From positions 1-64,000 of IMG/VR virus record IMGVR_UViG_3300007609_000008: a DNA stretch of 64,000 nucleotides; one strand, written 5' to 3'. Of this stretch, positions 25,668-63,585 are shown in pieces. The position numbers and the translations under genes are program-made. Under the pieces are notes generated by a model. The model made no database searches and was not told where the DNA came from. It saw nothing but the letters and a program-made list of their open reading frames with translations. The stretch comes from a virus. Within the stretch, counting starts at the first letter, position 1. The number at the start of each line of letters is the position of its first letter.

Positions 25668-25850
25668 ATGACTATGGAACTCTACTACGCTGCAACGCTA
25701 TTCCTAATGATAGGTTGTGGCTACATGTCTTTTACTATTGGTCGCAGAGAAGGTGTCATGCGCTTTCTGGCTTACCTGGAAGACTTTACTGATAAGAACG
25801 GCATGGTAAAGGTACGGTTGACTGACACCACATTCGAGGTCATTAAATGA
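25668..25850 (+). CDS. Small membrane protein
   Basis: N-terminal TM helix; ATGA overlap with next gene. Confidence 0.6.
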   Translation: MTMELYYAATLFLMIGCGYMSFTIGRREGVMRFLAYLEDFTDKNGMVKVRLTDTTFEVIK

Positions 25851-26584
25851 GCTCCATATGGACATTTGGTGACTCAGCGGTTGAAAGAAATATTCGTCTG
25901 CGGCCAGATATGCCAAACCATGAAACATGGACTGAAATTCTAGCTAAAAAACTTGGCATGAAATTACAGGATTATTCATGGGGTGGCAGTAGTCTTGATT
26001 TTACTTATTATCAATACAGAAATAATCTGTCTCGCTTCAATAAAGGCGATATAATTATTATTGGGTTGACTGACTTGTGTAGAGGTTGGTTTTACGAAAA
26101 GACTCCCAATCTTTCATCGCAACATAGAATAAATTCCAGTGAATATGTATCAGATGATCACAAAAAAGCCATCGACATTTATTTCAACGATTTTTTCAGA
26201 GAGGATGTAGAAACACACATACTACATAACTTTCTCGATACTTTGGTGTATCATCAAGAAAAATATGGTGTAAAAATTATCACATTCTCTACTGAAAAAT
26301 ACACATATGACCGAGTAAATATACCCAAGGAACTTACAGGTGCAAATGGTGTACTGTGGCAAGATGCATCGATGGGTGAAGTCATAGAAGGTAGAGAAGC
26401 ATACGATAAAATATTCTACAACATCCAATATGGCAAGAAAACTGATACTAGATTAAATCATGTTTCAGAACCTAATCATGCCATATGGGCAGATAAAATG
26501 TACGAGTCTATTCACACTGGTGAGCCAATGGACTTTACCACTGGCTTTCTTAAAAACATAATGAGCGTAAAGGAATTAGAATGA
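25847..26584 (+). CDS. SGNH/GDSL-like hydrolase or acyltransferase
   Basis: WTFGDS, GGSS, C-terminal NH..E.NH.IWA; paralog of 29599..30333. Confidence 0.65.
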   Translation: MSSIWTFGDSAVERNIRLRPDMPNHETWTEILAKKLGMKLQDYSWGGSSLDFTYYQYRNNLSRFNKGDIIIIGLTDLCRGWFYEKTPNLSSQHRINSSEYVSDDHKKAIDIYFNDFFREDVETHILHNFLDTLVYHQEKYGVKIITFSTEKYTYDRVNIPKELTGANGVLWQDASMGEVIEGREAYDKIFYNIQYGKKTDTRLNHVSEPNHAIWADKMYESIHTGEPMDFTTGFLKNIMSVKELE

Positions 26585-27982: not shown

Positions 27983-28687
27983 ATGAAAAAATATGCAACC
28001 ATAAAAGAAGCAAAAGACAAAGAACTTAAGTTTTTACCAAAAAAATTTAAATGGTTAGGCACGGACTCTGTAGAAACTTTTATGAAGCAGAGTAAAGAGC
28101 ATCAGAACCATTGGAATAATCAGCCGCCTATTGAGTATGACATTAACCACTATGGTTTTAGATCTGCCAAATTTCCCGAGATCAAAACAAGAGAGTCCAT
28201 TACCTTCATTGGCTGTTCGAACACAGTGGGAATTGGAATGGATAAAGAAAGGTGTTGGACTCATCTACTCTCTCAGAAACTAGGTCTTGAAGAAATAAAC
28301 CTAGGAGTAGGAGGCAGTTCAACAGACACAGCGTTTCGTGTGTACAATGAATGGCAACCAATACACAGAAGCAAAATCACTTGCTTTCTTTTGCCACCTT
28401 CAGCCAGATTGGAACTTTGTGAAGAGAATGAATGGCGAAATATTGGACACTGGTCAGAAGGAATAATTGAACCAGACTTACTGTCTAATCTTTTAGATCC
28501 CACTCTCAATGAGGTGAGAACGGACAGAAATGTAGCAGCAGTAAAACATATTGCACAAGAGACATTGTCCAGAATAATCGTGTTACCTTATCATGCTAGA
28601 TTAAAAAATGATTTTGCGAGAGATAACATGCATGCTGGTGCAGAATGGCATAAAGCAATTGCTGAAGCCTTTGAGAAAAAAATATAA
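27983..28687 (+). CDS. SGNH-like protein
   Basis: INHYGFRS, FIGCSNT.G.G, INLGVGGSS, DNMHAG..WH. Confidence 0.6.
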   Translation: MKKYATIKEAKDKELKFLPKKFKWLGTDSVETFMKQSKEHQNHWNNQPPIEYDINHYGFRSAKFPEIKTRESITFIGCSNTVGIGMDKERCWTHLLSQKLGLEEINLGVGGSSTDTAFRVYNEWQPIHRSKITCFLLPPSARLELCEENEWRNIGHWSEGIIEPDLLSNLLDPTLNEVRTDRNVAAVKHIAQETLSRIIVLPYHARLKNDFARDNMHAGAEWHKAIAEAFEKKI

Positions 28688-28690
28688 ATA
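28683..28690 (+). promoter_or_regulatory. T4-type late promoter TATAAATA
   Basis: Exact motif upstream of 28720-iscU-iscA. Confidence 0.65.
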
Positions 28691-28719
28691 ATGTTATTAA
28701 TTACCCATACAGAGGCATT

Positions 28720-28896
28720 ATGAAAAAGACCTACAGCAGTCTAACACAGCTCAAAGTAGAAATAGAAAGAGAAGGCAAGTGCGAAGTCCTAGAATTCAAT
28801 GGCATGCACTTGATAGTCCAATGCGACAACAAAAAAATAAGATACGGCCTTAACAGAGGCGAAGTCATCGAAACAATCCTATTGGAGAAGAACTAA
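28720..28896 (+). CDS. Small protein, 58 aa (not in ORF track)
   Basis: GAGG RBS; MKKTYSSLTQLKVEIEREGKC..., TAATG overlap with iscU. Confidence 0.65.
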   Translation: MKKTYSSLTQLKVEIEREGKCEVLEFNGMHLIVQCDNKKIRYGLNRGEVIETILLEKN

Positions 28897-29270
28897 TGGC
28901 CTATTCAGATAAGGTAGTTGATCATTACGAGAACCCAAGAAACGTAGGTAAATTTGATCCAGCAGAAGCAAACATCGGCACAGGCATGGTAGGAGCACCC
29001 GCTTGTGGTGATGTCATGCGACTCCAGATCGAGGTAGAGGAAGGTGTGATCACTGACGCTAAATTCAAAACCTACGGCTGTGGATCAGCAATCGCATCCT
29101 CATCCTTGCTCACGGAATGGGTCAAAGGTAGAACACTAGAACAGGCAAAAGAAATCAAGAACACAGACCTAGCAGAAGAACTAGAACTACCTCCTGTCAA
29201 AGTCCATTGTTCAGTACTAGCGGAAGACGCAATCAAAGCAGCCATCAAGGACTATCAGGACAAGCAATGA
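28896..29270 (+). CDS. iscU: Fe-S cluster scaffold IscU
   Basis: MAYSDKVVDHYENPRNVG, APACGDVM, GCGSAIASSS, KVHCSVLAEDA. Confidence 0.97.
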   Translation: MAYSDKVVDHYENPRNVGKFDPAEANIGTGMVGAPACGDVMRLQIEVEEGVITDAKFKTYGCGSAIASSSLLTEWVKGRTLEQAKEIKNTDLAEELELPPVKVHCSVLAEDAIKAAIKDYQDKQ

Positions 29271-29593
29271 CAGTCGCAGCATTCACACCACAAGCATTGA
29301 TCCTGACAGAAAAAGCAAAAGAAAAAGCAAATTCTCTCAAGGAAGACAATAAACTATTAAGAGTCTACGTACACGGCGGAGGCTGTTCAGGCTTCCAATA
29401 CGGATTCTCTATAGAAGAAAAGCAAGAAGACGACACCGTTATAGACAACGCAGTATTAGTAGACAGCCTATCCTATTCCTATGTAGTAGGCTCAACGCTA
29501 GACTATAAAGAAGACATCATGGGAAGCCAATTCACAGTCACAAACCCAAACGCAGTAGGCACCTGTGGTTGTGGCGTATCGTTTACGGTATAA
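29267..29593 (+). CDS. iscA: A-type Fe-S carrier (IscA/ErpA, HesB family)
   Basis: GGCSGFQY and TCGCGVSF. Confidence 0.93.
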   Translation: MTVAAFTPQALILTEKAKEKANSLKEDNKLLRVYVHGGGCSGFQYGFSIEEKQEDDTVIDNAVLVDSLSYSYVVGSTLDYKEDIMGSQFTVTNPNAVGTCGCGVSFTV

Positions 29594-29598
29594 TAACC

Positions 29599-30333
29599 AT
29601 GAAAAATACTCTCTGGACATTCGGTGATTCTTTCATCAACACTTACAGTCGTATGCCAATAGGCGAGAACTGGACTCAAATGCTTGCCAAAAAACTTGGC
29701 ATGGAACTCAAAGACTTCGGGCTTTCTGGATCAAGTCTAGAATATTCTACTTTCCAATACACAGAACACTATGATGAAATAAAAGAAGGAGACATTGTAA
29801 TAGTCGCACTGACAGCCTTTGGTGCAAGAAAATGGCTAAATATTAATGACATAAGAATACAAACCCCCCATAGATTAGAATCCGCCGAAGACCTAACAGA
29901 ACAAGACAAACAACACTACAGCAGAGTCTTCGCCGAACACGATATCAGAACAACGGCCAGTCTCTTCACACTGTTCATGCACTCACTATCCGATCTAAAG
30001 AAACAAAAAGGAGTCAAAGTCGTTGCCCTACCCTGTTTCGAACACGGCACTCTGTATCTAGATGGACTAAGCCTTACTAATATTCCTAAAGTAAAAGGAA
30101 ATCTACGACACCATATTTCTGACCATGAAGTCAAAGGATCATCTGAACAAAAACAATGCTTACAGTTTGATGACCCTAGAGTTAATCACATGGAAAAATG
30201 TAATCACATAATCCTAGCAGAAAAGGTGTATGAATCACTTATAAACGATACAGACATAGACCTAACAACAGGCTTTCACGCAGAAGTCCTCAATGCAAAT
30301 GACTTCGTTTTGTACAATCGCCCGCAGAGATAA
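29599..30333 (+). CDS. SGNH/GDSL-like protein
   Basis: WTFGDS...LAKKLGM...GSSLE; paralog of 25847..26584. Confidence 0.65.
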   Translation: MKNTLWTFGDSFINTYSRMPIGENWTQMLAKKLGMELKDFGLSGSSLEYSTFQYTEHYDEIKEGDIVIVALTAFGARKWLNINDIRIQTPHRLESAEDLTEQDKQHYSRVFAEHDIRTTASLFTLFMHSLSDLKKQKGVKVVALPCFEHGTLYLDGLSLTNIPKVKGNLRHHISDHEVKGSSEQKQCLQFDDPRVNHMEKCNHIILAEKVYESLINDTDIDLTTGFHAEVLNANDFVLYNRPQR

Positions 30334-30344
30334 GCAGACAAAAA

Positions 30345-30803
30345 ATGATCTATTTCCCAATCAATTTCAAACTCACAGCAAGCCAAATAAACCCCCTCCT
30401 GGCACATGATAAACTCACAGATTATTATAAACATCACGGCAAGTCAGGCTACCATAACCTAGACTTCGGAAAGGTACCAAAGGAACTAACAAAAGAAATT
30501 ACAAAATTCTTTCCTAATCCAGATAAGATTACTCTAGTCGCTATAGATAAGAACAAAACAGTACCAGTCCATACAGACGGAAACTATGGAAGAAAAACAG
30601 TCATTATCTTTCCATTAACAGATAACTACGCTCCCTGTATAGCAGATAACACAGAAATACCCTATATGCATTGTTATGCGTTTAATACACAGATACCACA
30701 CACAGTCATAAACAATGACACTAGAAGGATAAGCCTCCAATTATGGTACGATATTGATATAGAACAACTGTACAGAGAAATGACACAGATAGAGCATAGA
30801 TAG
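30345..30803 (+). CDS. 2OG-Fe(II)/AspH-like oxygenase
   Basis: VPVHTDG, FNTQIPHTV, RRISLQ. Confidence 0.65.
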   Translation: MIYFPINFKLTASQINPLLAHDKLTDYYKHHGKSGYHNLDFGKVPKELTKEITKFFPNPDKITLVAIDKNKTVPVHTDGNYGRKTVIIFPLTDNYAPCIADNTEIPYMHCYAFNTQIPHTVINNDTRRISLQLWYDIDIEQLYREMTQIEHR

Positions 30804-30905
30804 TACCCTAAGAGAGACAACGTTTCGCTATATAGAGCAAAAGCGAGACAACGTTTCATCATTCTATACATGAAGTATGGTTCCACGATACCACCAGAAA
30901 ATCCA

Positions 30906-31143
30906 CAGATGCAAATCCACACGGGTACCGCCACTGGAACTCAGATGCGAGCGGAAATGCGGGTCGAGATGCAGATTCCGTAGCTATTCGAGATGCAGAT
31001 TTATATTCTAGCACAGGTGCAGCCGAATGTCAACCCCAGATGCGAAAAAAGTACGAGCCCAGGTGCAGACTCTGGTCCACGTAGGTGCAGATTAGGGTAG
31101 GACACAGGTGCAGATGAAGGCCCAGACGCAGACCCAGACGTAC
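30906..31143. repeat. Iteron-like direct-repeat array, core (C/G/T)AGRTGC(A/G)
   Basis: Copies at 30906, 30942, 30966, 30990, 31014, 31037, 31060, 31082, 31105, degenerate at 31123 and 31135; spacing 22-24 bp. Confidence 0.8.
31005..31033 (-). promoter_or_regulatory. Leftward sigma70 promoter inside repeat array
   Basis: Minus strand GGGGTTGACA-17 bp-TAGAAT with TGn extended -10. Confidence 0.7.
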
Positions 31144-31148
31144 ACAGA

Positions 31149-31240
31149 GACACAGGCCCTGCCCAGATGAGCCATATAGAGCCTAATTCCTCTAGCGTAT
31201 AGGGTATCCATCAGAAGGCCAGCCGGGCAGGGCCTGTGTC
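31149..31240. repeat. Perfect 16-bp inverted repeat, 60-nt loop
   Basis: GACACAGGCCCTGCCC (31149-64) and GGGCAGGGCCTGTGTC (31225-40). Confidence 0.85.
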
Positions 31241-31480
31241 CCGGTAAATTCCATTGATGGCCGAAAAAATTCCATTGATGGCTTGATGGAGTTCCGGGCA
31301 GGGGCAGGGCAGGAATTCCGGGAGCTGGAGTTCCGGGAAAATCTCTGCGGCCCTGGCCACTGGAGCCCTAGATCCGCTGAGGCCTGACCATGGCCAAAAC
31401 CTCAATGATATCAACTACTTAGAAAACCCTAATGAAATCAAGCACTTGGCGCCAGTGCCTTTTTTCAGGGTTGAGGGATC

Positions 31481-31509
31481 AGTATAGCATACGGAATTCC
31501 ATTTGTCAA
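31481..31509 (-). promoter_or_regulatory. Leftward sigma70 promoter, back-to-back with first early cassette
   Basis: Minus strand GGGGTTGACA-17 bp-TATACT, leader AACCCTGAAAAAAGG. Confidence 0.75.
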
Positions 31510-31545
31510 CCCCTAATTTTGATTTTATTTGATACAAATTAATGG

Positions 31546-31574
31546 TTGACATTTACGGATACCTGTGTCATAAT
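31546..31574 (+). promoter_or_regulatory. Early promoter cassette 1
   Basis: TTGACA-17-CATAAT, ACAAACTGAAAAAGGAAC leader. Confidence 0.88.
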
Positions 31575-31603
31575 AGCTCTACAAACTGAAAAAAGGAACT
31601 GAA

Positions 31604-31855
31604 ATGAACCAAGCCTTTAGGAATGAAATGATGACCCTAGGTACTGTACTGGAAGAGGTACACCGTAATATGCAGGCCTGTGCGGAATCCGATTCCCTTC
31701 GTATCGATGACCTTAATTCCCAGTGGGAGCTCCTACAGGAGTACGAATATGACGGTCCAGAGTCGCTCCAGCACCACGTCTATTATAGTGGTATGGATAC
31801 GGAGCCACGAGAGGAGCTCCTGGAGATAGTCCTGAAACATACTGTAACAAAATAA
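31604..31855 (+). CDS. Early hypothetical protein
   Basis: 83 aa, own promoter and RBS. Confidence 0.7.
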   Translation: MNQAFRNEMMTLGTVLEEVHRNMQACAESDSLRIDDLNSQWELLQEYEYDGPESLQHHVYYSGMDTEPREELLEIVLKHTVTK

Positions 31856-31858
31856 TGG

Positions 31859-31887
31859 TTGACATTTAGGGAAAAGCCTGTCATAAT
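31859..31887 (+). promoter_or_regulatory. Early promoter cassette 2
   Basis: TTGACA-17-CATAAT. Confidence 0.88.
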
Positions 31888-31918
31888 AGCCATACAAACT
31901 AAAAAGAGGAAAGAAAAT

Positions 31919-32266
31919 ATGTCAATTTACCAAGTCAACGCAGTAACCTCCATCAACGGATCATACCTATCTGCCCGTGAGCAGGCCCTGGGCATGGATC
32001 GCCATACCCTAAGCTCAGATGGTCGTCTGGAGACCATCACTAAGGAATTCCGTACAGTGGAAAAGTTTACGGAAACCACACTCGGTACGGTTCTAGTCGG
32101 ACAGTCCTTCCTTAAGTATGACCTGCTCGCTAGGAATGTGGCCAAGTATGAGAAGCTGCCCCTATCGTCAAAGGTCAAGGTAGGATTCAATGGTAAACAG
32201 AAGGAAATCCACTTCGACGGCAAGCGATTTGTCCAGATTGGTACTGATTACCATGGGGAAGTGTAA
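31919..32266 (+). CDS. Early hypothetical protein
   Basis: ATG after GAGGA RBS (ORF track start falls in promoter). Confidence 0.7.
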   Translation: MSIYQVNAVTSINGSYLSAREQALGMDRHTLSSDGRLETITKEFRTVEKFTETTLGTVLVGQSFLKYDLLARNVAKYEKLPLSSKVKVGFNGKQKEIHFDGKRFVQIGTDYHGEV

Positions 32267-32283
32267 AAAAGTTAAAAAAAGGG

Positions 32284-32312
32284 TTGACAAATAGGAAAAA
32301 GCCTGTCATAAT
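32284..32312 (+). promoter_or_regulatory. Early promoter cassette 3
   Basis: TTGACA-17-CATAAT. Confidence 0.88.
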
Positions 32313-32347
32313 AGCTCTACAAACTGAAAAAAACGAGGAAAATCATC

Positions 32348-32713
32348 ATGGCATATGTATCACAAGCGGACAAAAAAGCACTGGCTCCTGAAATCAAGCG
32401 AGTCCTCAATAAGTACGGCATGAAAGGTACCCTAGCAGTCCGCAACCACATGACCCTAGTCTGTAATATCAAGTCTGGCAAGCTGGATTTCACTGAAGGC
32501 ACTCACGGTGACGGCTACACTCAGGTAAATCCTTATTGGATCGACCGTACTTACACTGGTGAGAAGGAAGCCTTCCTCACTGAGCTCCTAGGAGCGATGA
32601 AAGGTCCAGACTTCTATGATCGCTCGGATGTTATGACCGATTATTTCGATATTTCCCATTATACTGATATTAATATCGGCGACTGGAACAAGCCTTACAC
32701 CAAAGTTTCATAG
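32348..32713 (+). CDS. Conserved early phage protein
   Basis: MAYVSQ..K...LAVRNH...DYFDISHY.DINIG.WNKPY, a family I recognise from phage early regions; function unknown. Confidence 0.7.
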   Translation: MAYVSQADKKALAPEIKRVLNKYGMKGTLAVRNHMTLVCNIKSGKLDFTEGTHGDGYTQVNPYWIDRTYTGEKEAFLTELLGAMKGPDFYDRSDVMTDYFDISHYTDINIGDWNKPYTKVS

Positions 32714-32720
32714 TTTCCTC

Positions 32721-32778
32721 TGGGGGGAGTGGTTACCCCCCAAACTCTCGGGCAGGGTTACTCCTTTTCTCCCTGCCC
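32721..32778 (+). ncRNA. Putative structured RNA (two GC-rich hairpins) before terminator
   Basis: TGGGGGG-AGTGGTTA-CCCCCCA and GGGCAGGG-13 nt-CCCTGCCC. Confidence 0.35.
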
Positions 32779-32785
32779 ACTTTAT

Positions 32786-32810
32786 AGCCCCCGTTTTGGG
32801 GGCTTTTTTT
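32786..32810 (+). terminator. Rho-independent terminator
   Basis: AGCCCCC-GTTTT-GGGGGCT followed by T run. Confidence 0.85.
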
Positions 32811-32815
32811 GTCTA

Positions 32816-32888
32816 TAAACCCTTGATTTTGAACTAAAAAACATCTTTTTTTAACTTTTTTTAAAAGGTTTTGTAAATCAAGGGGTTA
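32816..32888. repeat. TAAnnnnTTGATTT inverted-repeat element
   Basis: TAAACCCTTGATTT-45 bp-AAATCAAGGGGTTA upstream of cassette 4. Confidence 0.7.
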
Positions 32889-32913
32889 GCACCAGTAAAA
32901 AAGTAGAAAAAGG

Positions 32914-32941
32914 TTGACAAAACCGAAAAACCATGTATAAT
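32914..32941 (+). promoter_or_regulatory. Early promoter cassette 4
   Basis: TTGACA-16-TATAAT. Confidence 0.85.
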
Positions 32942-32975
32942 GTAACCATAAACTGAAAAAAACGAGGAAATAACC

Positions 32976-33266
32976 ATGATCGTATATAAAATCCCAAGTG
33001 AAACCACAGCCATCCGCTATAAAAAGGTAGTAAATGCCAGGGGCAAATATGCATTCGGTGGATTAAAGCGGGCAGGGTCGAAGGAATCCTATAACATAGA
33101 TCAGGCCATCGCCATTCTGAATAGGTACTCTGGTAAGGCAATCCCACGAGAGAAGCTCCTTCAGGCCTTCTCCAAGAAGTTTAATGCCACCGAGGCATCC
33201 AAGAATATCAAGGCAGCCTATATGACCTTGTGGTTCACCAAGAACAAATTAATTAAGGAAATATAA
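32976..33266 (+). CDS. Early basic hypothetical protein
   Basis: 96 aa, GAGGA RBS. Confidence 0.7.
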   Translation: MIVYKIPSETTAIRYKKVVNARGKYAFGGLKRAGSKESYNIDQAIAILNRYSGKAIPREKLLQAFSKKFNATEASKNIKAAYMTLWFTKNKLIKEI

Positions 33267-33274
33267 AAAAAAGG

Positions 33275-33302
33275 TTGACAAATCGGATTTTTAGTGTATA
33301 AT
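33275..33302 (+). promoter_or_regulatory. Early promoter cassette 5
   Basis: TTGACA-16-TATAAT-GTAACCACAAATCAGAGAAAAAGGAAATAA. Confidence 0.85.
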
Positions 33303-33334
33303 GTAACCACAAATCAGAGAAAAAGGAAATAATC

Positions 33335-33526
33335 ATGACCAAGACTAACCACAGAGAAATGGCAGATAAGCTAATCCAAGAATTCCTAAAGAATGGCGGT
33401 ACTATCACCAAGGTACCAGCTAAGCCAGTACGGGTACGCCATATTGCCGGGCTCAAGTGGGCAAGTATCGCTCACACAGGCCGTAAGCAAATCACCGTGG
33501 CCAGAATGTTATCTCAGGGAGTGTAA
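33335..33526 (+). CDS. Early small protein
   Basis: EFLKNGGTITKVP motif. Confidence 0.7.
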   Translation: MTKTNHREMADKLIQEFLKNGGTITKVPAKPVRVRHIAGLKWASIAHTGRKQITVARMLSQGV

Positions 33527-33534
33527 AAAAAGGG

Positions 33535-33562
33535 TTGACAAATCCAAAAAACCCTGTATAAT
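33535..33562 (+). promoter_or_regulatory. Early promoter cassette 6
   Basis: TTGACA-16-TATAAT; downstream leader identical to cassette 5. Confidence 0.85.
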
Positions 33563-33594
33563 GTAACCACAAATCAGAGAAAAAGGAAATAACC

Positions 33595-34296
33595 ATGAAA
33601 TACCTATCTATCGGTTCAAACGCTAAGACAATCAAGTCGGACAAGGGCGGCGAGTACCTAACCGCTATCATGTACATGGCTCCAGCAGATACAGTGGACG
33701 GTATCAACGTCTGCCCTACGGCTGAATTAGCTGGTTGTAAGTCTGCCTGCCTATACAAGGCTGGCATGGGCTCATTTTCGAACGTCCAGAAAGCCCGTAT
33801 GGCCAAGACTATCGCATTCCGTGACAATCCAGTGGCTTTCGTGGACCAGCTGGCAGATGATATCCAAAAAGGTATCAAAAAAGCCACCAAGAAGGGTGTC
33901 CAGCTAGTCGTCCGTCTCAATGGCACCTCAGATATCGCTTGGGAGAACCAGAAAGGCTCAAATGGCCTAAACCTCATGGACACCTTCCCTGATACCCAAT
34001 TCTATGACTACACCAAACTCCCTGGCCGTAAAGTGCCAGCCAACTACCACCTCACTGTATCTTACTCAGAGGCCAACCTAGCCTACGCTTCTAAGGCTAA
34101 CCGTACCACTCACAACCTAGCAGTGGTATTCCGCAAGGATCTCCCAGAAGTCTTCCTAGGACGTAAGGTTATCAATGGCGACAAGGACGACCTTCGCTTC
34201 CTAGATCTGGCCAACGTGGTCGTCGGTCTAATCGCTAAGGGCCCAGCCAAGAAGGATACCTCTGGCTTCGTAATCGACGGTCACGCAAGTATCTGA
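33595..34296 (+). CDS. Gp88-like protein (radical-SAM-like Cys motif)
   Basis: NAKTIK, CPTAELAGCKSACL, VRLNGTSDI.WE, FYDYTK, DKDDLRFLD. Confidence 0.75.
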   Translation: MKYLSIGSNAKTIKSDKGGEYLTAIMYMAPADTVDGINVCPTAELAGCKSACLYKAGMGSFSNVQKARMAKTIAFRDNPVAFVDQLADDIQKGIKKATKKGVQLVVRLNGTSDIAWENQKGSNGLNLMDTFPDTQFYDYTKLPGRKVPANYHLTVSYSEANLAYASKANRTTHNLAVVFRKDLPEVFLGRKVINGDKDDLRFLDLANVVVGLIAKGPAKKDTSGFVIDGHASI

Positions 34297-34327
34297 TTCC
34301 ATTAAGGTAAATAATTACAAAAAAGGG

Positions 34328-34356
34328 TTGACAAATACCAAAACCCTGTGTATAAT
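34328..34356 (+). promoter_or_regulatory. Early promoter cassette 7
   Basis: TTGACA-17-TATAAT. Confidence 0.88.
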
Positions 34357-34388
34357 GTACTTACAAACTGAAAAAAAGAGGAAAAACC

Positions 34389-34604
34389 ATGCAACCAATA
34401 ACTAAGCAATTCGTCAAAATGTATAACGAGGCAGATATCATGGCCTCACGCTCTAATCAGATGATCGCTTGGATGATCGAAACCCTAGAGCAACAATCGG
34501 CTGAAGGCAACCTAGATCGTAACGGTCAGGTACACCTAGCCCTAGGTAAAGAGTTTAAGGAAGAGCTTGAGGCTTATCTAGCCAAGCCCATCGGAGGAGA
34601 ATAA
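34389..34604 (+). CDS. Early hypothetical protein
   Basis: 71 aa, GAGGA RBS. Confidence 0.7.
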   Translation: MQPITKQFVKMYNEADIMASRSNQMIAWMIETLEQQSAEGNLDRNGQVHLALGKEFKEELEAYLAKPIGGE

Positions 34605-34605
34605 G

Positions 34606-34695
34606 ATGATGGCAATCCTTAAGGAACTCCTAATCTGTACCGCAGTCGGCCTAGCTCTAGCTCTCCTATTAGGCTGGCAGCTCCTCCTAGCTTAG
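34606..34695 (+). CDS. Small hydrophobic membrane peptide, 29 aa (not in ORF track)
   Basis: GGAGGAG RBS; MMAILKELLICTAVGLALALLLGWQLLLA. Confidence 0.6.
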   Translation: MMAILKELLICTAVGLALALLLGWQLLLA

Positions 34696-34700
34696 ACCAG

Positions 34701-34756
34701 AGAGCGTCCCTAAATCCCAGAATCCGAGGTAGGGTTTTGGTACCAGGGACGCTTCT
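34701..34756 (+). terminator. Long-loop hairpin closing the early array
   Basis: AGAGCGTCCCT...AGGGACGCTTCT; no strong U tract. Confidence 0.45.
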
Positions 34757-34910
34757 ATATAACGGTATATACCCACCAGCCATGTTTCAAGGTCACAGGG
34801 TTCCTTCACAGAGATTCCCTATATAAAAAAATTGCAGAAAATTTTTCGCAGCCAAAAAAGTCGGCACAGAACTCGGCAACCAACGGCGGGCAAAAAAGAG
34901 CAAATAATGG

Positions 34911-35025
34911 TTGACAGCCCAGTACAACCCTGTTATAATTGGACATGTCCCCTTTAAGAATAGATCTATTGGAGTGTATTAGATCTATAATAACGCTTGA
35001 CAATACCCCAAGAATTTTGTATAAT
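34911..35025 (+). promoter_or_regulatory. Two tandem sigma70 promoters with intervening AGATCT palindromes
   Basis: TTGACA-17-TATAAT at 34911-39 and 34997-35025; ATAGATCTAT and TAGATCTAT at 34960-88. Confidence 0.8.
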
Positions 35026-35056
35026 GTCTATACACAATGAGAAATGGAGAACAGCA

Positions 35057-36580
35057 ATGTCAGCAATGGCTACAGAGAATTATGAGAATCCTGAGAATCC
35101 CGATATTACGACTGTTAAGACATGGAAAAGAGGCATGAGTTCCGTTAAACTGAAAGCAGAGAAAAAGGCAACTACAACACTCACTGAGGCTATTGATGCA
35201 CTTAAGCCTATGCCTAAATTCACTAAGGTTAATATGTCTATTGCTGAGTTTGTTAATGATCTGTTACCCGATACAGACTGCAACCCTATTGGACAGCGTC
35301 CCCCTATTTCTTCAGATACAGACAATGAGAAGTCGAGAGGCATTGTTGATTCTATCATGAAGAACTATGATATTGGCTTAATTACGCTTGTCGATGTAAA
35401 AGACGTAGATAAGACACCTTACAAGTGGGAGTCTGTAGACGGTGGTCATCGCAAGCGTAGTATTAGAGACTTCCTGAATAATCTTGTTAAATGGAATGGT
35501 AGATACTATTCTCAATTGTCTAAAGCAGAACAGAATCACTTTAAGTCTTATCCCTTGTCATTTACTCTTTATGAGAATATGCCTGCATACATCATAGGCG
35601 ATATCTTCCGCACTACTAATAAGACTACTGATGTAAATGATCAAGAGACTTTGAACTCTTACGGCGATCACCCTGTTGCGAATGCGATTAGGGAAACAGT
35701 CCGAATGGTTGCAAGCAGCAACGGCAAGGCTACCGTGATCCATGATCTCTTTGAGGTTTCTGTTGGGGGCCGTTTCAGATGGATCAGCGGCGATAATCTG
35801 CGGCTACGCCAAGAGGAGTTTGTGGCTCGTATCTACTACTCTTTCTATGAGAAGGGCAATAATGCTACGCTAGGGTCAAGAACATCTAAGCAGATAGCGC
35901 ATCTGTATAATGATCCCTCTGTTAATATAAAGCAGTTGAAGAAGAAAGTTGATAAGTGTTTGGACTTCTTGTTTGAGATGGCTAAAGTACGAAAGCAGAC
36001 AGTGGGTGACGGACTGGGTAACAGCGAGAAGAATGCGTTGCTGAATCTGTACTTGTATCTGTCGGACAGCTATAACAGCGACCTAGAATGTAATGACTAT
36101 GTGAGCTGGTACAAAGCGTTTTCAGTTGTCTATAACGACCTGTCTAGAGATCCAAAAGGCATTTGGTCAGAAGTGCCTGATCTAGATTTTGAGTCTAAAG
36201 ATTCTACAATCTCTCAGTTGTTCAAAGACTATTGTCGCAACCATGATAACAAAGACAAGCTAACACAGTCTGTTATCTGGATGACGCAACACGAGAAGTG
36301 GTCACTTGTTAATGAATACACCTTGTTTAAAGATCGTAATCGTTCTTTTCCTAAGTGGATGAAAGAAGTCAAGCTCCAAGAACAAGGTTATGTCTGTGCG
36401 ATTGACGGACTACCGTTAGACTGGAAAGACGCAGAAGCTGGACACATTATTGCTCATGTTAAGGGTGGTCCTACAGTGTACGACAATCTCGCTATGATTC
36501 GCAAGTCTCATAATCGTGACATGGGTACAATGGACGTCAATGAGTATCTTGAACACTACAACAAGACAAAGGCAGCGTAA
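35057..36580 (+). CDS. DUF262 (ParB/Srx-like) + HNH protein, GmrSD-like nuclease
   Basis: WESVDGGHR (DGQQR-like), IF..TN..T.VNDQE; C-terminal CAIDG...EAGHIIAHVKGG.T.YDNL..I..SHNR..G; GGAGA RBS. Confidence 0.75.
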   Translation: MSAMATENYENPENPDITTVKTWKRGMSSVKLKAEKKATTTLTEAIDALKPMPKFTKVNMSIAEFVNDLLPDTDCNPIGQRPPISSDTDNEKSRGIVDSIMKNYDIGLITLVDVKDVDKTPYKWESVDGGHRKRSIRDFLNNLVKWNGRYYSQLSKAEQNHFKSYPLSFTLYENMPAYIIGDIFRTTNKTTDVNDQETLNSYGDHPVANAIRETVRMVASSNGKATVIHDLFEVSVGGRFRWISGDNLRLRQEEFVARIYYSFYEKGNNATLGSRTSKQIAHLYNDPSVNIKQLKKKVDKCLDFLFEMAKVRKQTVGDGLGNSEKNALLNLYLYLSDSYNSDLECNDYVSWYKAFSVVYNDLSRDPKGIWSEVPDLDFESKDSTISQLFKDYCRNHDNKDKLTQSVIWMTQHEKWSLVNEYTLFKDRNRSFPKWMKEVKLQEQGYVCAIDGLPLDWKDAEAGHIIAHVKGGPTVYDNLAMIRKSHNRDMGTMDVNEYLEHYNKTKAA

Positions 36581-36741
36581 TGGAAAGAGAAACACTAGAG
36601 TTAGTGATCGGGTCGTTTGCCTTGCTGTCATTCTGTTATATGGGATTTGCTCTCACACTGTATTACAAAGCAAGTAAGCCTACAAAGCGAAGAGTGTACG
36701 ATAAGCACAGTGTTAAGTATCGTGACGGGGACAATACCTAA
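36580..36741 (+). CDS. Small membrane protein, 53 aa (not in ORF track)
   Basis: TAATG coupling at both ends; one TM helix. Confidence 0.65.
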   Translation: MERETLELVIGSFALLSFCYMGFALTLYYKASKPTKRRVYDKHSVKYRDGDNT

Positions 36742-37061
36742 TGAATGAATATAACCCAGACAATTGGGTCGTTCTGAAAATTGTTAATGAAGGCGAGACA
36801 CTCTATAAAGTGCTTGCTGGATGGAGCGGTGGCTATCTAGACGGCGATTCTTGGCGATTGAACTCAGGTATCACCGAAGTCAAAGGCGACAGTGATGGCA
36901 GCCTATTCTTCTACGGTCATTCAGGCAGTTGCTATACATGTCACCCAGAAAGATATCGCTTGACAATGGCTATTGCTGGAGTGTATAATCAGCTTAAAGA
37001 AAAGTTTGGTGATGCAATTGAAATGATGCCAGAAGACACTGATTGGAGGGAGATTGTGTGA
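36741..37061 (+). CDS. Conserved phage protein
   Basis: PDNWVVLKI...YKVLAGWSGGYLDGDSWRLNSGI...GSCY.C motif. Confidence 0.75.
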   Translation: MNEYNPDNWVVLKIVNEGETLYKVLAGWSGGYLDGDSWRLNSGITEVKGDSDGSLFFYGHSGSCYTCHPERYRLTMAIAGVYNQLKEKFGDAIEMMPEDTDWREIV

Positions 37062-37357
37062 TGAGTGATAAAGAAGAGTTGTTTGAGGCACTCAGAGAGA
37101 TCAGAGAATCACAACGGCAAGCAAAGGCAGAATATGAAACCAAGAACGATGCTTGGTGGAACGGTCTAACAGAAGAAGAGCGTGAAGATGCGTTCTATGC
37201 TGTGTGCAAACGTATACACAAAGCAGAGTTTGTAGATCAGGCTTCTTATCGTGGAACATTGTATGATGTGTTTGGTTTTGATGAGAGTATGTATGGTCGT
37301 GGTATAGACTGTGGGTATGGAGATATCCATAACTCTATCTTTTTACTTGAGGAGTAA
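37061..37357 (+). CDS. Hypothetical protein
   Basis: WWNGL...AFYAVCKRI..SYRGTLYDVFGF. Confidence 0.65.
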   Translation: MSDKEELFEALREIRESQRQAKAEYETKNDAWWNGLTEEEREDAFYAVCKRIHKAEFVDQASYRGTLYDVFGFDESMYGRGIDCGYGDIHNSIFLLEE

Positions 37358-37363
37358 TTTATT

Positions 37364-37600
37364 ATGAATTGGCATTATGCAGCAAAGAAGTTCAGTTCCG
37401 AAATTGAAGAATGGTACGGTCTTGTTGAAGTCTTTGATGAAGACATGCACACAGAGAATGAAGTCACTGTCAATGGAGCTTCTCCAGAAGAGTTAGCTAT
37501 GTGGCTACGACAAGCAGCAGATGATGTTGAAAAGTATGGTGTTGTAAATGATACTGATGATGGAAAGAAAATGTGTGACAAGCCATTATTGGAGAAGTAA
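37364..37600 (+). CDS. Hypothetical protein
   Basis: 78-aa ORF with GGAG RBS. Confidence 0.6.
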   Translation: MNWHYAAKKFSSEIEEWYGLVEVFDEDMHTENEVTVNGASPEELAMWLRQAADDVEKYGVVNDTDDGKKMCDKPLLEK

Positions 37601-37601
37601 T

Positions 37602-37832
37602 ATGACCATGCCAACAGAAAGAACACAAGCAGTATTACGAGTGGAACGATTTCTGCTGGATCTGCGTAACCCCAAGAAATATCCCCGTATTCCCAAAGCA
37701 GTGCGTGAAGAAGCCAGTCGATTGTTGAAACACTATCCGTCACAGTACGATATGATGTACATCGATGAAAGTTTTGAGCCGTTGGAGGCAATAGATTATG
37801 AACGAGACCTTGTTGGAAGAGGTGGGCAATGA
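37602..37832 (+). CDS. Conserved small phage protein
   Basis: MTMPTERTQAV...FLLDL...PRIPK.VR.EA..LLKHYP. Confidence 0.7.
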   Translation: MTMPTERTQAVLRVERFLLDLRNPKKYPRIPKAVREEASRLLKHYPSQYDMMYIDESFEPLEAIDYERDLVGRGGQ

Positions 37833-37863
37833 AGAAACGATTGGTTAGACACTCTTGAAACTG

Positions 37864-38103
37864 ATGATGATTAATTCAAAGACTATAAGTATCACTAAGT
37901 GGTTAGCTACGATTCTAGTGATTACGGCGACTGCCTTTAACAGTTTGGGCTACTACCCAATAGGACCTATCATTAATGCGTTTGCTGGTCTGCTATGGTG
38001 TGCAGTATCAATAGCGTGGAACGACAAGGCATTAATGGTAACGAATTTTACGATAACTTTTGTTTGTATTGCCGGGTTGGCATTTAATTTTGGAGCATTG
38101 TGA
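37864..38103 (+). CDS. Small membrane protein (DUF6552-like)
   Basis: KWLAT...NSLGYYPIG...W.DKAL..TN, three TM segments. Confidence 0.6.
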   Translation: MMINSKTISITKWLATILVITATAFNSLGYYPIGPIINAFAGLLWCAVSIAWNDKALMVTNFTITFVCIAGLAFNFGAL

Positions 38104-38306
38104 TGGAATCAGTAGTAGAGGCACTTCGTGAAAAGACAGTTGGCTTTCAGCCGCATACGTATTATCTGAACGGTGCTGGTAAGTGTGTAGCGTATAAGAA
38201 GAACGGCGAAGACAGTGTTAAGGTCTTTATCAAGCCTTTGTCGTTTAGTAAGAGTTATCGTAAGTTTGAGAAATTACCCGTTGATGAACAAGGAATAGTA
38301 CTATGA
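38100..38306 (+). CDS. Hypothetical protein
   Basis: HTYYLN...FSKSYRKF. Confidence 0.6.
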   Translation: MMESVVEALREKTVGFQPHTYYLNGAGKCVAYKKNGEDSVKVFIKPLSFSKSYRKFEKLPVDEQGIVL

Positions 38307-38437
38307 GCGATGAAGATTTCAGTAAAGTAGAATTACGCCACGATGAAGGCAAGGCAGTCATGGGCGTTGTAGCTCTTTGTGTGACTATCGTAGGAACGTT
38401 TTGTTTCTTTGCACTTAAAGCTGTAGGAGTGCTATAA
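38303..38437 (+). CDS. Small membrane protein, 44 aa (not in ORF track)
   Basis: ATGA overlap; C-terminal TM helix. Confidence 0.55.
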   Translation: MSDEDFSKVELRHDEGKAVMGVVALCVTIVGTFCFFALKAVGVL

Positions 38438-38473: not shown

Positions 38474-38977
38474 TTATTCAGAATCGTTGAGCGGGTTGTC
38501 TAAGATTCGCTCAATCTTTTCCTCTATCTCGTCACGCATTTCACGTAACTCTTCGTCTAACTCTCTTAGACGGTCATTCAAAGATGTTTCCATAGCGTAC
38601 ACATCGTTACGCAAATCTCTCTGAGTCTCGTTTGTAGACTCATCAATAGTACGGACAAAAGTATCAACCTCATCTGCGTCTTCACGCACACGGTCTAAGT
38701 CTTCACGCATACTTTCGAGTAGAGTCGTTACAGTTTCAAACTGCTGACCAACATCTTCTTGTAGTGAAGCTACTGTTTCTGCTTGTACGGCTAACTGCTG
38801 ATTGATACCAGACATGTCAGGTGCGACATATTCTGTCACTGCTTGTTCTGCATCAAGCAACCGCTGATACAATTCAAAGCCGCCCCATAAGCCGCCAATG
38901 ATTGTACCGAGTAATGGAATGAGCACAAGTGCTTTACCACCTGATACTTTCATTTCTCCTATTTCTACCTCAGCCAT
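38474..38977 (-). CDS. Membrane-anchored coiled-coil protein
   Basis: N-terminal TM (LIPLLGTIIGGLWGGF), acidic heptads. Confidence 0.7.
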   Translation of the reverse strand: MAEVEIGEMKVSGGKALVLIPLLGTIIGGLWGGFELYQRLLDAEQAVTEYVAPDMSGINQQLAVQAETVASLQEDVGQQFETVTTLLESMREDLDRVREDADEVDTFVRTIDESTNETQRDLRNDVYAMETSLNDRLRELDEELREMRDEIEEKIERILDNPLNDSE

Positions 38978-38990
38978 TTATTTTCTCCTT

Positions 38991-40124
38991 TTATGGTCTT
39001 GCTATGAAATTAGGTACTTCTGGGTCGTACGGATCTGGTAAAACATCTAATTCAGCATTTCTAGCATCATACCAAGACTCTGGTTGGAATGTTACTGAAC
39101 TTGTTTTCGTCCAACCATTGCTTCCGCTTGAATATGTAACAGTATCACCTGTAACTGAAGTGATTAGAACATCTTGTAAAAAATTATATTCAGCTACTAT
39201 ATCTGACTTACAGTTAGATGCAGCAGCTATAATCTCAGGCCCGTATGCAGCTATAATAGGTGCTTTATAATCCATTTCACTGGCGACTTCTAGCTCACCG
39301 TCTTCATTAAAATCTGCGTCTCTAGCTGATAAAGCGTCTATTGTGTCAGACAACGAGCCCGACCCATTAGGTACGCCATGATTAAATGTAATTGATTTAA
39401 GTTTTGTTGTTATGTCTAAACTCTGTGCAAACTCTGCCCATTTTCCTATCTTGTTCAACACTGTCAGCGCATAACCACTGTTAGTAATTATTTCTTGATT
39501 ATCATTATTTAATTTATACTCCCCAACTATGTAATCCGCATCTGCTTCTGGCTGTACATCTTCTTCTACTAATGATCCTACTGAAATATTGCAATCGTAT
39601 CTAGATGCTAATGTTCCGGTAACTAGTTGTGTAAACTGAGTATTGAGTTGTCCTATGATTGAGTTTGCATCAGTCCTAAGTTCATCGATTTCGTCTTGTT
39701 TAGTTTGTCTATGACTTTCAGCAGTATTGGCCTGAGATGTCGCATTACTGTAATCTGTAGCGTAATCTGGATCTAATGGATCTAAATTATCTCTATGTGT
39801 TAGCCATTCATCTCTTATATTTGCATGCGTGTCTCTTGCATCACACTGCGCTATTAATTTTGCATCTATATTGTTCTTATGTCCAACCGCAGTAGTGTAT
39901 AGCGGTTTTGCCGTATATTTAATTCTTGCTATTTCATCTGCCATAGAATACATAGAGGCTTCAGAGATATCGTTGTTTGCGACAATTGTACTTTCTAGGT
40001 ATACGTCTTCTAAGTTAGTTAAAAGACCCATGTTGTTTTTTAAATCTAACATCCAGTCAAGAATTTGATGTTCAAGCCTTTCTTCTACGTCATTTACATC
40101 AGCGGTAATCGGACAGTCAGCCAT
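38991..40124 (-). CDS. Acidic hypothetical protein, late
   Basis: 377 aa, GGAG RBS, late promoter upstream; no recognisable family. Confidence 0.65.
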   Translation of the reverse strand: MADCPITADVNDVEERLEHQILDWMLDLKNNMGLLTNLEDVYLESTIVANNDISEASMYSMADEIARIKYTAKPLYTTAVGHKNNIDAKLIAQCDARDTHANIRDEWLTHRDNLDPLDPDYATDYSNATSQANTAESHRQTKQDEIDELRTDANSIIGQLNTQFTQLVTGTLASRYDCNISVGSLVEEDVQPEADADYIVGEYKLNNDNQEIITNSGYALTVLNKIGKWAEFAQSLDITTKLKSITFNHGVPNGSGSLSDTIDALSARDADFNEDGELEVASEMDYKAPIIAAYGPEIIAAASNCKSDIVAEYNFLQDVLITSVTGDTVTYSSGSNGWTKTSSVTFQPESWYDARNAELDVLPDPYDPEVPNFIARP

Positions 40125-40148
40125 TATAATCTCCTAATCAATAATGTA

Positions 40149-43660: not shown

Positions 43661-43692
43661 TGTCGGTCCTTTAAAGGGGGGATATGTCATGT

Positions 43693-63510: not shown

Positions 63511-63585
63511 GCGCTTGTGGTGAAAGGGATATCACAGGAGCCTTCTAAGCTCTTATTCCAGGTTCGAATCCTGGCAGGCGTACCA
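63511..63585 (+). tRNA. trnR: tRNA-Arg (anticodon TCT)
   Basis: Cloverleaf: GCGCTTG/CAGGCGT acceptor, GGAGC-CTTCTAA-GCTCT anticodon arm, CCAGG-TTCGAAT-CCTGG T arm, encoded CCA. Confidence 0.93.

Follow-up and report, generated by a model that had tools for sequence, protein, structure and literature searches.

The change in strand composition between 28.7 and 38.4 kb of the window (the whole 64,000-nt stretch of viral DNA analyzed here) is, on balance, probably a junction of gene sets that differ in synonymous codons and in amino acids, and not a skew generated by replication forks. The junction is located in the variable early/late region of a marine T4-like phage. At neutral sites the anomaly is one-sided, and each gene set has a compositional character of its own. 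From left to right, the sets would be a late isc operon that avoids T-ending codons, a 0.8-kb control block, seven C-rich early cassettes, a nuclease gene, and genes for small proteins rich in E, V, G, and W. The codon habits of these sets would not record the direction of forks but would be lineage histories, borne by modules that relatives have shuffled among themselves. Inferring origins from skew can mislead in T4-like phages, as local shifts along one coding strand may arise from the codon usage and amino-acid content of modules.

Strand composition of the window

The local shift in composition is real and beyond chance. The base counts given in the original prediction were exact (30361-30420: A23 C20 G6 T11; 37261-37320: A11 C2 G23 T24). 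In 500-nt windows, the GC skew had its low of -0.246 at 30251-30750 and its high of +0.356 at 37001-37500, and (G+T-A-C)/N went from -0.264 to +0.144 from left to right. Four-fold sites differed from those in the rest of the genome by chi-square at 28720-30803 (p=1e-24), 31604-34604 (p=2e-35), and 36580-38437 (p=8e-8). The flanks were correctly placed on the same strand: every gene in 23.1-38.4 kb is on the + strand, and the run is terminated by four minus-strand genes with late-type promoters (38474-43690).

The predicted “inversion” was upheld as a local shift, but it is not symmetric, the four-fold anomaly (A/C-rich) being confined to the left flank and the center. The bias was also said to fade with distance. 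It does so on the left, where the baseline is reached beyond ca. 27 kb; on the right, its limit is 38.4 kb, the point at which the genes switch strand. Four-fold composition matches the genome baseline to the left of ca. 27 kb and beyond 43.7 kb, and the skews on both sides return to baseline inside 2-4 kb, with no plateau along either arm. Genome-wide, the cumulative GC skew rises monotonically, following the coding strand, with only a shallow local dip at 28-36 kb (count 1022 to 966).

The cumulative four-fold G+T-A-C (“keto”) curve was level over 0-27 kb, dropped by ca. 260 over 27-36 kb, and was level afterwards; it is a step, not a V. When 126 genes were ranked, 9 of the 12 most A/C-biased fell in 27.4-34.6 kb. 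No change of sign in the four-fold skew was found at the repeat array described below, both sides of which are A/C-rich in the window and in the relative L096. The detrended four-fold GC-skew curve reaches its lowest point in the genome at 35,791, over a range wider than gene-order permutations give (p=0.0045). T4 was used as a control; its genes at the mapped oriA and oriE are ordinary at four-fold sites, and gene 5, the antisense partner of the oriE primer RNA, is no exception.

Gene sets on either side of the junction

A T4-type late promoter motif, TATAAATA (28683-28690, + strand), is located upstream of the isc operon. The T3-avoiding set, all on the + strand, starts with a 58-aa ORF (28720-28896), the L097 homolog of which is equally biased. 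It continues with the gene for the IscU (NifU_N) Fe-S scaffold, rich in codons ending in A or C (28896-29270; Pfam E=1e-52; four-fold AT skew +0.51), that for an A-type Fe-S carrier of the IscA/ErpA type (29267-29593; Pfam Fe-S_biosyn E=6e-14), a 244-aa paralog of 25847-26584 (29599-30333; 30% identity), and a 152-aa protein with no family match, the four-fold sites of which are A-rich and T-poor (30345-30803). The IscA/ErpA-like gene is the most biased in the genome (four-fold G+T-A-C = -0.69), and no close relative of it was found among cultured phages. In the paralogous pair, 29599-30333 is biased and 25847-26584 is not.

At the four-fold sites of 28720-30803, A, C, G, and T stand at.50,.28,.06, and.16, compared to.36,.13,.09, and.43 in the genome. 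The A/C richness of this flank is purely synonymous: the observed (G+T-A-C) was -0.201, the amino-acid expectation -0.049, and the genome value -0.037. T-ending codons are depleted in nearly all families of the codon table (e.g. GCT from 38 to 11%, ATT from 47 to 17%, and TTT from 71 to 30%). The biggest four-fold change is from T to A, and purines rise from.45 to.56. The late Fe-S assembly operon combines a lineage- and strand-specific avoidance of T-ending codons with the genome's most extreme codon bias. A host origin of the isc genes was considered and rejected, as the biased iscU copies group within phage iscU of ordinary composition at 80-85% identity.

The center (31.6-34.6 kb) has C-rich third positions, matching the left flank in sign. 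Nine near-consensus rightward cassettes of promoter, leader, and ribosome-binding site are found in 31546-35025 (+ strand; -35 elements at 31546, 31859, 32284, 32914, 33275, 33535, 34328, 34911, and 34997). Eight to nine copies are 60-100% identical over 48-84 nt, with a conserved leader, Shine-Dalgarno sequence, and start codon, and GTTGACA-N15-18-TATAAT was matched 7 times (0.04 expected). Seven small early genes, including GP88 (33595-34296), occupy 31604-34604 on the + strand; they favor C- and G-ending codons (GC3.48-.58, four-fold C.34). They are followed by a gene for a DUF262/GmrSD_N-like and HNH nuclease (34997-36580, + strand), which has near genome-typical codons (four-fold T.43, the genome value). 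A codon class common to early genes was rejected, as genes proximal to early promoters elsewhere than in 31-37.5 kb have no excess of GC3 (0.356 vs. 0.317, p=0.32).

These cassettes recall the PeSL (promoter-early stem-loop) cassettes and hyperplastic regions of T4-type phages (Arbiol et al. 2010, PMC2839356; Comeau et al. 2014, PMC4122927). In both, a near-perfect TTGACA-N17-TATAAT is repeated with a conserved leader and Shine-Dalgarno sequence, each promoter drives one small gene without known function, and content and order vary between close relatives. Unlike in PeSL cassettes, a clear stem-loop or terminator was found at only one of nine upstream stretches (32786-32804); the other eight 70-nt stretches folded no better than shuffles (z from -1.8 to +1.1).

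The right flank (36580-38437, + strand) codes for eight small proteins with an excess of E, V, L, M, Y, C, G, F, and W and few N, T, S, and Q residues; one has a DUF6552 domain (37855-38103). The flank is G/T-rich mostly because of this amino-acid make-up. Its GC skew was +0.252, against an amino-acid expectation of +0.205 and a background of +0.084, such that ca. 70% of the excess is expected from amino acids, and its four-fold G+T vs. A+C is at baseline (genes from -0.19 to +0.20; genome mean -0.03, sd 0.18). Amino acids explain most of the bias on the right and do not explain that on the left.

Comparison with relatives suggests that the bias is lineage-specific and largely moves with the genes. 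Other phage iscU genes (n=78) track their own genome background (mean T.34), and only L015, L016, and the window itself have T-poor iscU. The 152-aa gene is of normal composition in its distant homologs. In L097, two genes of normal composition lie between the biased iscU and the biased iscA, and unbiased genes lie nearer the array than the biased iscU does. In L001, the 152-aa gene is biased at a different genomic position that has no array, and iscA is without bias. Gene order varies among relatives, and the window, L016, L096/L097, L100, and L103 differ in which small early genes are present and in how these are arranged. Genes adjoining the array are biased in every array-bearing relative, and L103 has several unrelated genes to the left of the array, each of them A/C-rich (+0.2 to +0.68).

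The non-coding block at 30.8-31.6 kb

Between the late operon and the early cassettes is a conserved non-coding block with two palindromes, a repeat array, and leftward promoters. The palindromic GAGACAACGTTTC is present in two copies (30814-30857) and is kept in seven relatives and in L016; it is followed by an invariant 13-mer, TTCTATACATGAA (30860-30872). In the iteron-like array (30907-31132), AGRTGC(A/G) recurs about ten times, always on the + strand, with spacings of 36, 24, 24, 24, 23, 23, 22, 23, and 18; the repeats are thus evenly spaced, mostly at 22-24 bp. They also read as AGRTGCAGA or AGRYGCR, and 7 of the 13 matches to AGRTGCRRA in the window fall inside the array. The array was found in seven related contigs, in which the cores are more conserved than the spacers (76% vs. 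47%, p=1.5e-7). It is G+C-rich (.49-.53), and a 26-nt inverted repeat (31144-31245; 85% complementary, fold z=-2.6) follows in a G+C-rich block (GC.46-.53). The non-coding stretch 30804-30998 is not depleted in G (.23).

Three leftward sigma-70-type promoters were found in the whole genome, two of them in this block. One (TTGACA-17-TAGAAT, 31005-31033, - strand) is embedded in the array with a repeat in its spacer, is aimed antisense at the late isc operon, and is retained among relatives. The other (31481-31509, - strand) stands back to back with the first rightward promoter; a terminator-like hairpin at 31055-31072 (- strand) predicts an RNA of ca. 430 nt from it. Upon infection, the host sigma-70 polymerase would fire rightward at about ten strong promoters, giving rise to small early proteins, and leftward at the two orphan promoters. 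One leftward RNA would terminate at the hairpin inside the array, and the other would run antisense into the late isc operon. A putative protein bound to the evenly spaced repeats would control the embedded promoter.

The anatomy of the block resembles that of T4 oriE. In T4 (NC_000866), six oriE repeats are exactly 24 nt apart; about ten copies are 22-24 nt apart here. oriE depends on an early-mode, host-type promoter, as this block may, and the primer RNA of oriE is annotated as antisense to a late gene's transcript, as the leftward transcript would be. The two differ in that the T4 repeats lie within the coding sequence of gene 5, whereas these are non-coding with a spacing not divisible by three; the two also share no sequence similarity, no relative of repEA/repEB was seen among the adjoining genes, and the genomic neighborhood is different. 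Even for T4 itself, a role of the direct repeats has yet to be proven (Kreuzer and Brister 2010, PMC3016281). Iteron origins of plasmids such as R6K gamma (cited in PMC3016281) likewise have same-orientation repeats 22-24 bp apart, conserved cores, and a repeat in a promoter spacer. Unlike these origins, the block has a G+C-rich array, no recognized initiator gene beside it (PHROGs and Pfam assign no function to the adjoining small genes), and no convincing DnaA boxes, with just two 7-of-9 matches (AAATCCACA). The original claim of an origin thus loses its grounds in skew and survives as that of a candidate, because a conserved non-coding block has evenly spaced repeats and antisense early-type promoters, as annotated for T4 oriE. 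Priming of replication in the manner of oriE is a tentative possibility that we would put below even chances. An R-loop-favoring design was rejected, as the antisense RNA would be pyrimidine-rich. The 30.8-31.5 kb interval is a small, testable element that could be an early control region or an origin in abundant marine phages with unmapped origins.

Searches for the block elsewhere returned little. Only tRNA exceeded the gathering threshold in Rfam, with one chance microRNA match at E<=1. The phage collection gave no match to the region by megablast or to the array by distant blastn. Pattern scans of IMG/VR with the invariant 13-mer plus CCACC yielded two unrelated 55%-GC contigs, and a two-iteron pattern yielded 108 stretches, none homologous to the block. 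Across these searches and the genomes compared, the element occurs only in seven JGI metagenome contigs and one further genome.

Explanations for the compositional shift

The original prediction was that forks move outward from a bidirectional origin in 30.8-35 kb, leaving the left A/C-rich and the right G/T-rich. On bacterial chromosomes, replication-associated skew makes the leading strand G/T-rich. The raw signs of the flanks agree with such a skew, the cumulative four-fold GC-skew minimum is at 35.8 kb, the zone contains the array and divergent early promoters, and T4 oriE, oriF, and oriG lie at compositional shifts (PMC3016281). Those T4 shifts, however, coincide with a switch of gene strand that is absent here, and, unlike bacterial skew, the deviation in the window is a local one that spans just 2-6 kb, affects four-fold sites on one side only, is not continued along the arms, and is partly due to amino acids. 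Because the four-fold curve is a step, the sign is the same on both sides of the array, the right flank mainly reflects amino acids, no skew persists along the arms, and T4 oriA and oriE have no local silent-site anomaly, the inference from composition to forks fails; we consider this origin of the shift improbable. The alternative offered with it, a long terminal repeat or genome end bearing host-takeover genes as in SPO1 (T5 being a further example), would suit the dense grouping of strong early promoters and small early genes. It is given almost no credence, since 28.7-38.4 kb has no second copy in the 125-kb contig (short promoter cassettes excepted) and the contig has no terminal repeat; moreover, the relatives hold the block internally, flanked by the same gene sets, and headful packaging in T4-type phages counts against it.

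It is conceivable, albeit rather unlikely, that the left flank bears a one-sided mutational footprint. Leftward early transcription from the promoter in the array, or RNA-primed leftward leading-strand synthesis like that at T4 oriE, would hold the minus strand of 28.7-31 kb single-stranded, deamination would render silent sites of the + strand A/C-rich, and new inserts would not yet have equilibrated. The changes on the + strand (A and C up, G and T down) fit exposure of the minus strand, the bias sets in at the leftward promoter and fades by ca. 27 kb, and the clustering of leftward promoters and the biased L103 genes are in keeping with it. The biased 152-aa gene of L001 again adjoins a leftward-transcribed gene, and the oriE primer RNA is listed in the T4 record as complementary to the transcript of late gene 5. 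Nevertheless, the main change, T to A, is impossible by deamination transitions, the neighboring non-coding DNA keeps its G, and the L097 genes closer to the array than iscU are unbiased, as is T4 gene 5. The minus-strand late module at 38.5-43.7 kb, past ten rightward early promoters, also lacks a mirror-image bias. Selection on the RNA itself is less likely still; late isc mRNA would be held poor in U and G (unstructured, or escaping a U-dependent endonuclease) for efficient Fe-S assembly serving radical SAM enzymes, many genes for which are carried by the phage. The restriction of the bias to silent sites in an operon-like set under one late promoter, and the rank of iscU and iscA as the most extreme genes in all clade relatives, are consistent with such selection; the remaining late genes are T-rich at four-fold sites, however, and L001 iscA and most phage iscU are unbiased.

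The preferred reading, a junction of gene sets, also has evidence against it. Nearly every codon family departs from T in one and the same direction, which looks like directional, strand-specific pressure rather than tRNA-driven selection. The L103 genes left of the array, the biased neighbors of the array, and the four-fold GC-skew minimum at 35,791 are further points against it. A joint reading, which we hold to be unlikely, is that the array and its embedded antisense early promoter form an oriE-type origin of a pelagimyophage-like lineage, and that the extreme, one-sided A/C enrichment of silent sites over the 2-5 kb on its left is a mutational scar of repeated unidirectional, RNA-primed initiation with the minus strand single-stranded. 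If true, this would be a local origin footprint, a feature that T4 itself lacks. The phage is uncultured, marine, and T4-like, and its capsid protein shares 68% identity with the capsid proteins of Methylophilales phage Melnitz and of the Pelagibacter phages.

Composition of the region

The window comprises the initial 64 kb of a single parent contig of 125,421 bp (38.5% G+C), the + strand of which holds almost all of the genes. The major capsid protein shares 68% identity with its counterparts in Methylophilales phage Melnitz and Pelagibacter phages Mosig and HTVC008M, which makes the source phage an uncultured marine T4-like myovirus. The only RNA genes were a tRNA-Arg(TCT) and a permuted tmRNA. 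Genes were called with a codon-usage score and a simple ORF model, and codon positions were then analyzed separately.

The original prediction held that strand composition inverts around 31-35 kb, a candidate bidirectional origin or genome terminus. The two 60-nt base counts given for it were reproduced exactly on recounting. In 500-nt windows, GC skew had its minimum (-0.246) at 30.25-30.75 kb and its maximum (+0.356) at 37.0-37.5 kb, and the G+C fraction rose to.43-.53 across 30.75-34.75 kb. The cumulative GC skew of the whole genome climbed monotonically with the coding strand, and 28-36 kb formed only a shallow dip (count 1022 to 966). A two-sided switch was not found at neutral sites: the cumulative G+T-A-C at four-fold sites (silent third codon positions; + strand orientation) was flat from 0 to 27 kb, lost about 260 over 27-36 kb, and stayed level thereafter to about 100 kb, a step rather than a V. 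Calculated per gene, the same quantity was unremarkable in the right flank (36580-38437; -0.19 to +0.20, compared to a genome mean of -0.03, sd 0.18), and nine of the 12 most A/C-biased genes were situated in 27.4-34.6 kb. The detrended four-fold GC-skew curve reached its lowest point in the genome at 35,791 and spanned a wider range than gene-order permutations did (p=0.0045); its shape arises from the local drop just described, after which the curve recovers slightly and then levels off over a long distance. In sliding windows, the four-fold GC-skew values of the region (-0.55 to +0.10) had counterparts in other parts of the genome; depletion of T with an excess of A over T at four-fold sites was seen at 27-32 kb alone.

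The left flank (28720-30803) encodes a 58-aa ORF, IscU, an IscA-type carrier, a 244-aa protein, and a 152-aa protein. Its four-fold composition (A.50, C.28, G.06, T.16) differed from that of the rest of the genome (A.36, C.13, G.09, T.43) with a chi-square p of 1e-24, and its codon positions 1 and 2 were ordinary. The corresponding values were A.28, C.34, G.11, T.26 for the early cassette genes (31604-34604); A.25, C.16, G.16, T.43 for the DUF262/HNH gene (34997-36580); and A.37, C.15, G.18, T.30 for the small proteins of the right flank.

Codon choice and amino-acid content

An expected composition was calculated for each region by giving each amino acid its genome-average codons. For the left flank, the observed G+T-A-C was -0.201, compared to -0.049 expected from the amino acids and a background of -0.037; its A/C richness is thus almost wholly synonymous. 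Nearly every codon family there shuns T-ending codons, with A- and C-ending ones substituting. In the right flank, the GC skew was +0.252 (+0.205 expected from the amino acids; background, +0.084). Amino-acid composition thus predicts about 70% of the excess in the right flank, whose proteins have a surplus of E, V, L, M, Y, C, G, F, and W and a shortage of N, T, S, and Q. The two flanks accordingly have separate causes.

The early cassette genes have another habit, favoring codons ending in C or G. AGA constitutes 6% of their Arg codons; its share is 55% genome-wide and 77% among the late isc genes. A general codon habit of early genes was considered and rejected, since early-promoter-proximal genes elsewhere are not GC3-rich. 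The sole tRNA of the phage, tRNA-Arg(TCT) at 63511-63585, reads AGA, the codon that is almost absent from the cassette genes.

Bias in relatives and its possible causes

Related contigs were drawn from IMG/VR and JGI metagenomes using a profile of the 152-aa protein; the relatives compared are few and non-independent. The order iscA, 152-aa gene, ca. 1 kb of non-coding DNA, early cassettes is common to seven contigs (L095, L096, L097, L100, L101, L103, and partly L098/L099). Among 80 phage loci, T-poor iscU genes were confined to the window's closest relatives, L015 and L016, and the others matched their own backgrounds. Because these other iscU genes, like distant homologs of the 152-aa gene, have ordinary compositions, the T-avoidance must have originated in the window's own lineage rather than having come in on a gene acquired from a host.

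The bias follows genes for the most part. In L097, a biased iscU and a biased iscA are separated by two genes of normal composition, and in L001 the 152-aa gene is still biased at a different genomic position, lacking the adjacent repeat array and neighboring an unbiased iscA. However, in L103 a group of unrelated genes to the left of the array is A/C-rich throughout, which counts against a purely gene-intrinsic reading. In the T4 record (NC_000866), oriA is at 16,763 and oriE is at 79,355, and the oriE primer RNA is recorded there as complementary to the transcript of gene 5; the genes flanking both origins, gene 5 included, have ordinary four-fold compositions. The minus-strand late module past strong rightward promoters in the window has no mirror-image bias, the non-coding DNA adjoining the biased genes is not depleted of G, and the main change in the left flank is from T to A, which deamination transitions do not yield. 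These four observations make replication- or transcription-driven mutation less likely, and replication is considered unlikely to be the cause of the composition pattern. As to the alternative of a long terminal repeat, 28.7-38.4 kb does not recur in the contig except as short promoter cassettes, and no terminal repeat was found in the contig.

The closest IMG/VR relative, L016, retains both GAGACAGCGTTTC palindromes and a degenerate embedded leftward promoter (11440-11716). It has lost the AGRTGCAGA array, the 244-aa gene, and the 152-aa gene; its iscU and iscA are nonetheless T-poor. Three GDSL/SGNH-like paralogs (25847-26584, 27983-28687, and 29599-30333; identities of 30% and 24%) look like the mobile members of the neighborhood, because their position differs in each relative (L097, L100, L015). 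The 152-aa protein (30345-30803) is conserved in metagenomes and had no match in Pfam or PHROG. By eye, it has a possible HxD...H...R pattern (HTDG, PHTV, RRISLQ), as in small 2-oxoglutarate/Fe(II) oxygenases.

The non-coding block and the early cassettes

No credible ORF was found within 30804-31603. Besides an invariant 13-mer, this block contains the palindromic GAGACAACGTTTC in two copies and an array (30907-31132) of about ten AGRTGC(A/G) repeats (unit AGATGCAGATT), all on the + strand and 22-24 nt apart, a spacing that is no multiple of three. Seven of the 13 matches to AGRTGCRRA in the window are packed into 210 bp. Over seven relatives, conservation was 76% in the repeat cores, compared to 47% in the spacers (p=1.5e-7). 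A leftward promoter (TTGACA-17-TAGAAT, - strand) is predicted within the array, and a second (31509-31481, - strand) is back to back with the first rightward promoter; the whole genome has just three sigma-70-type promoters on the minus strand, these two among them. Leftward promoters embedded in the array are retained in relatives. No Rfam family matched the block, and the predicted ca. 430-nt RNA of the second leftward promoter folded moderately better than shuffled sequences (z=-2.6).

In T4, oriE, oriF, and oriG sit at transcriptional divergence and compositional shifts (PMC3016281). The block resembles oriE in its repeat period and in a predicted early-type promoter that points antisense toward a late gene, but it has neither sequence similarity to oriE nor recognizable repE genes nearby. 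By this analogy, the block is a possible, though doubtful, replication origin. The oriE "iterons" coincide with a coding repeat, because they recur with an exact 24-nt period within the 3' portion of gene 5 (5403-5570 of L108, the T4 oriE stretch; T4 79,402-79,569). This coincidence is worth recalling wherever the oriE repeats are cited as origin iterons.

To the right of the block are nine near-consensus promoter-leader-RBS cassettes with one small gene apiece, and their gene order varies among relatives. They are similar to the PeSL cassettes of T4-type hyperplastic regions (PMC2839356, PMC4122927), but mostly lack the stem-loop. A 63-aa cassette protein (33335-33526) had a weak hit, under the cut-off of 29.3 bits, to the RNA-polymerase-binding domain of SutA (21.9 bits; E=1e-4) and is possibly a small takeover protein that binds the host polymerase. 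The GP88-family protein (33595-34296) shares 91-94% identity with its counterparts in L096, L097, and L103, compared to 57-77% for the adjacent cassette genes; by these identities, it is unusually conserved for a variable early region. A perfect TTGACA-18-TATAAT promoter (36960-36989) is located within the 106-aa gene at 36741-37061, directly before an overlapping ORF that starts at 37043.
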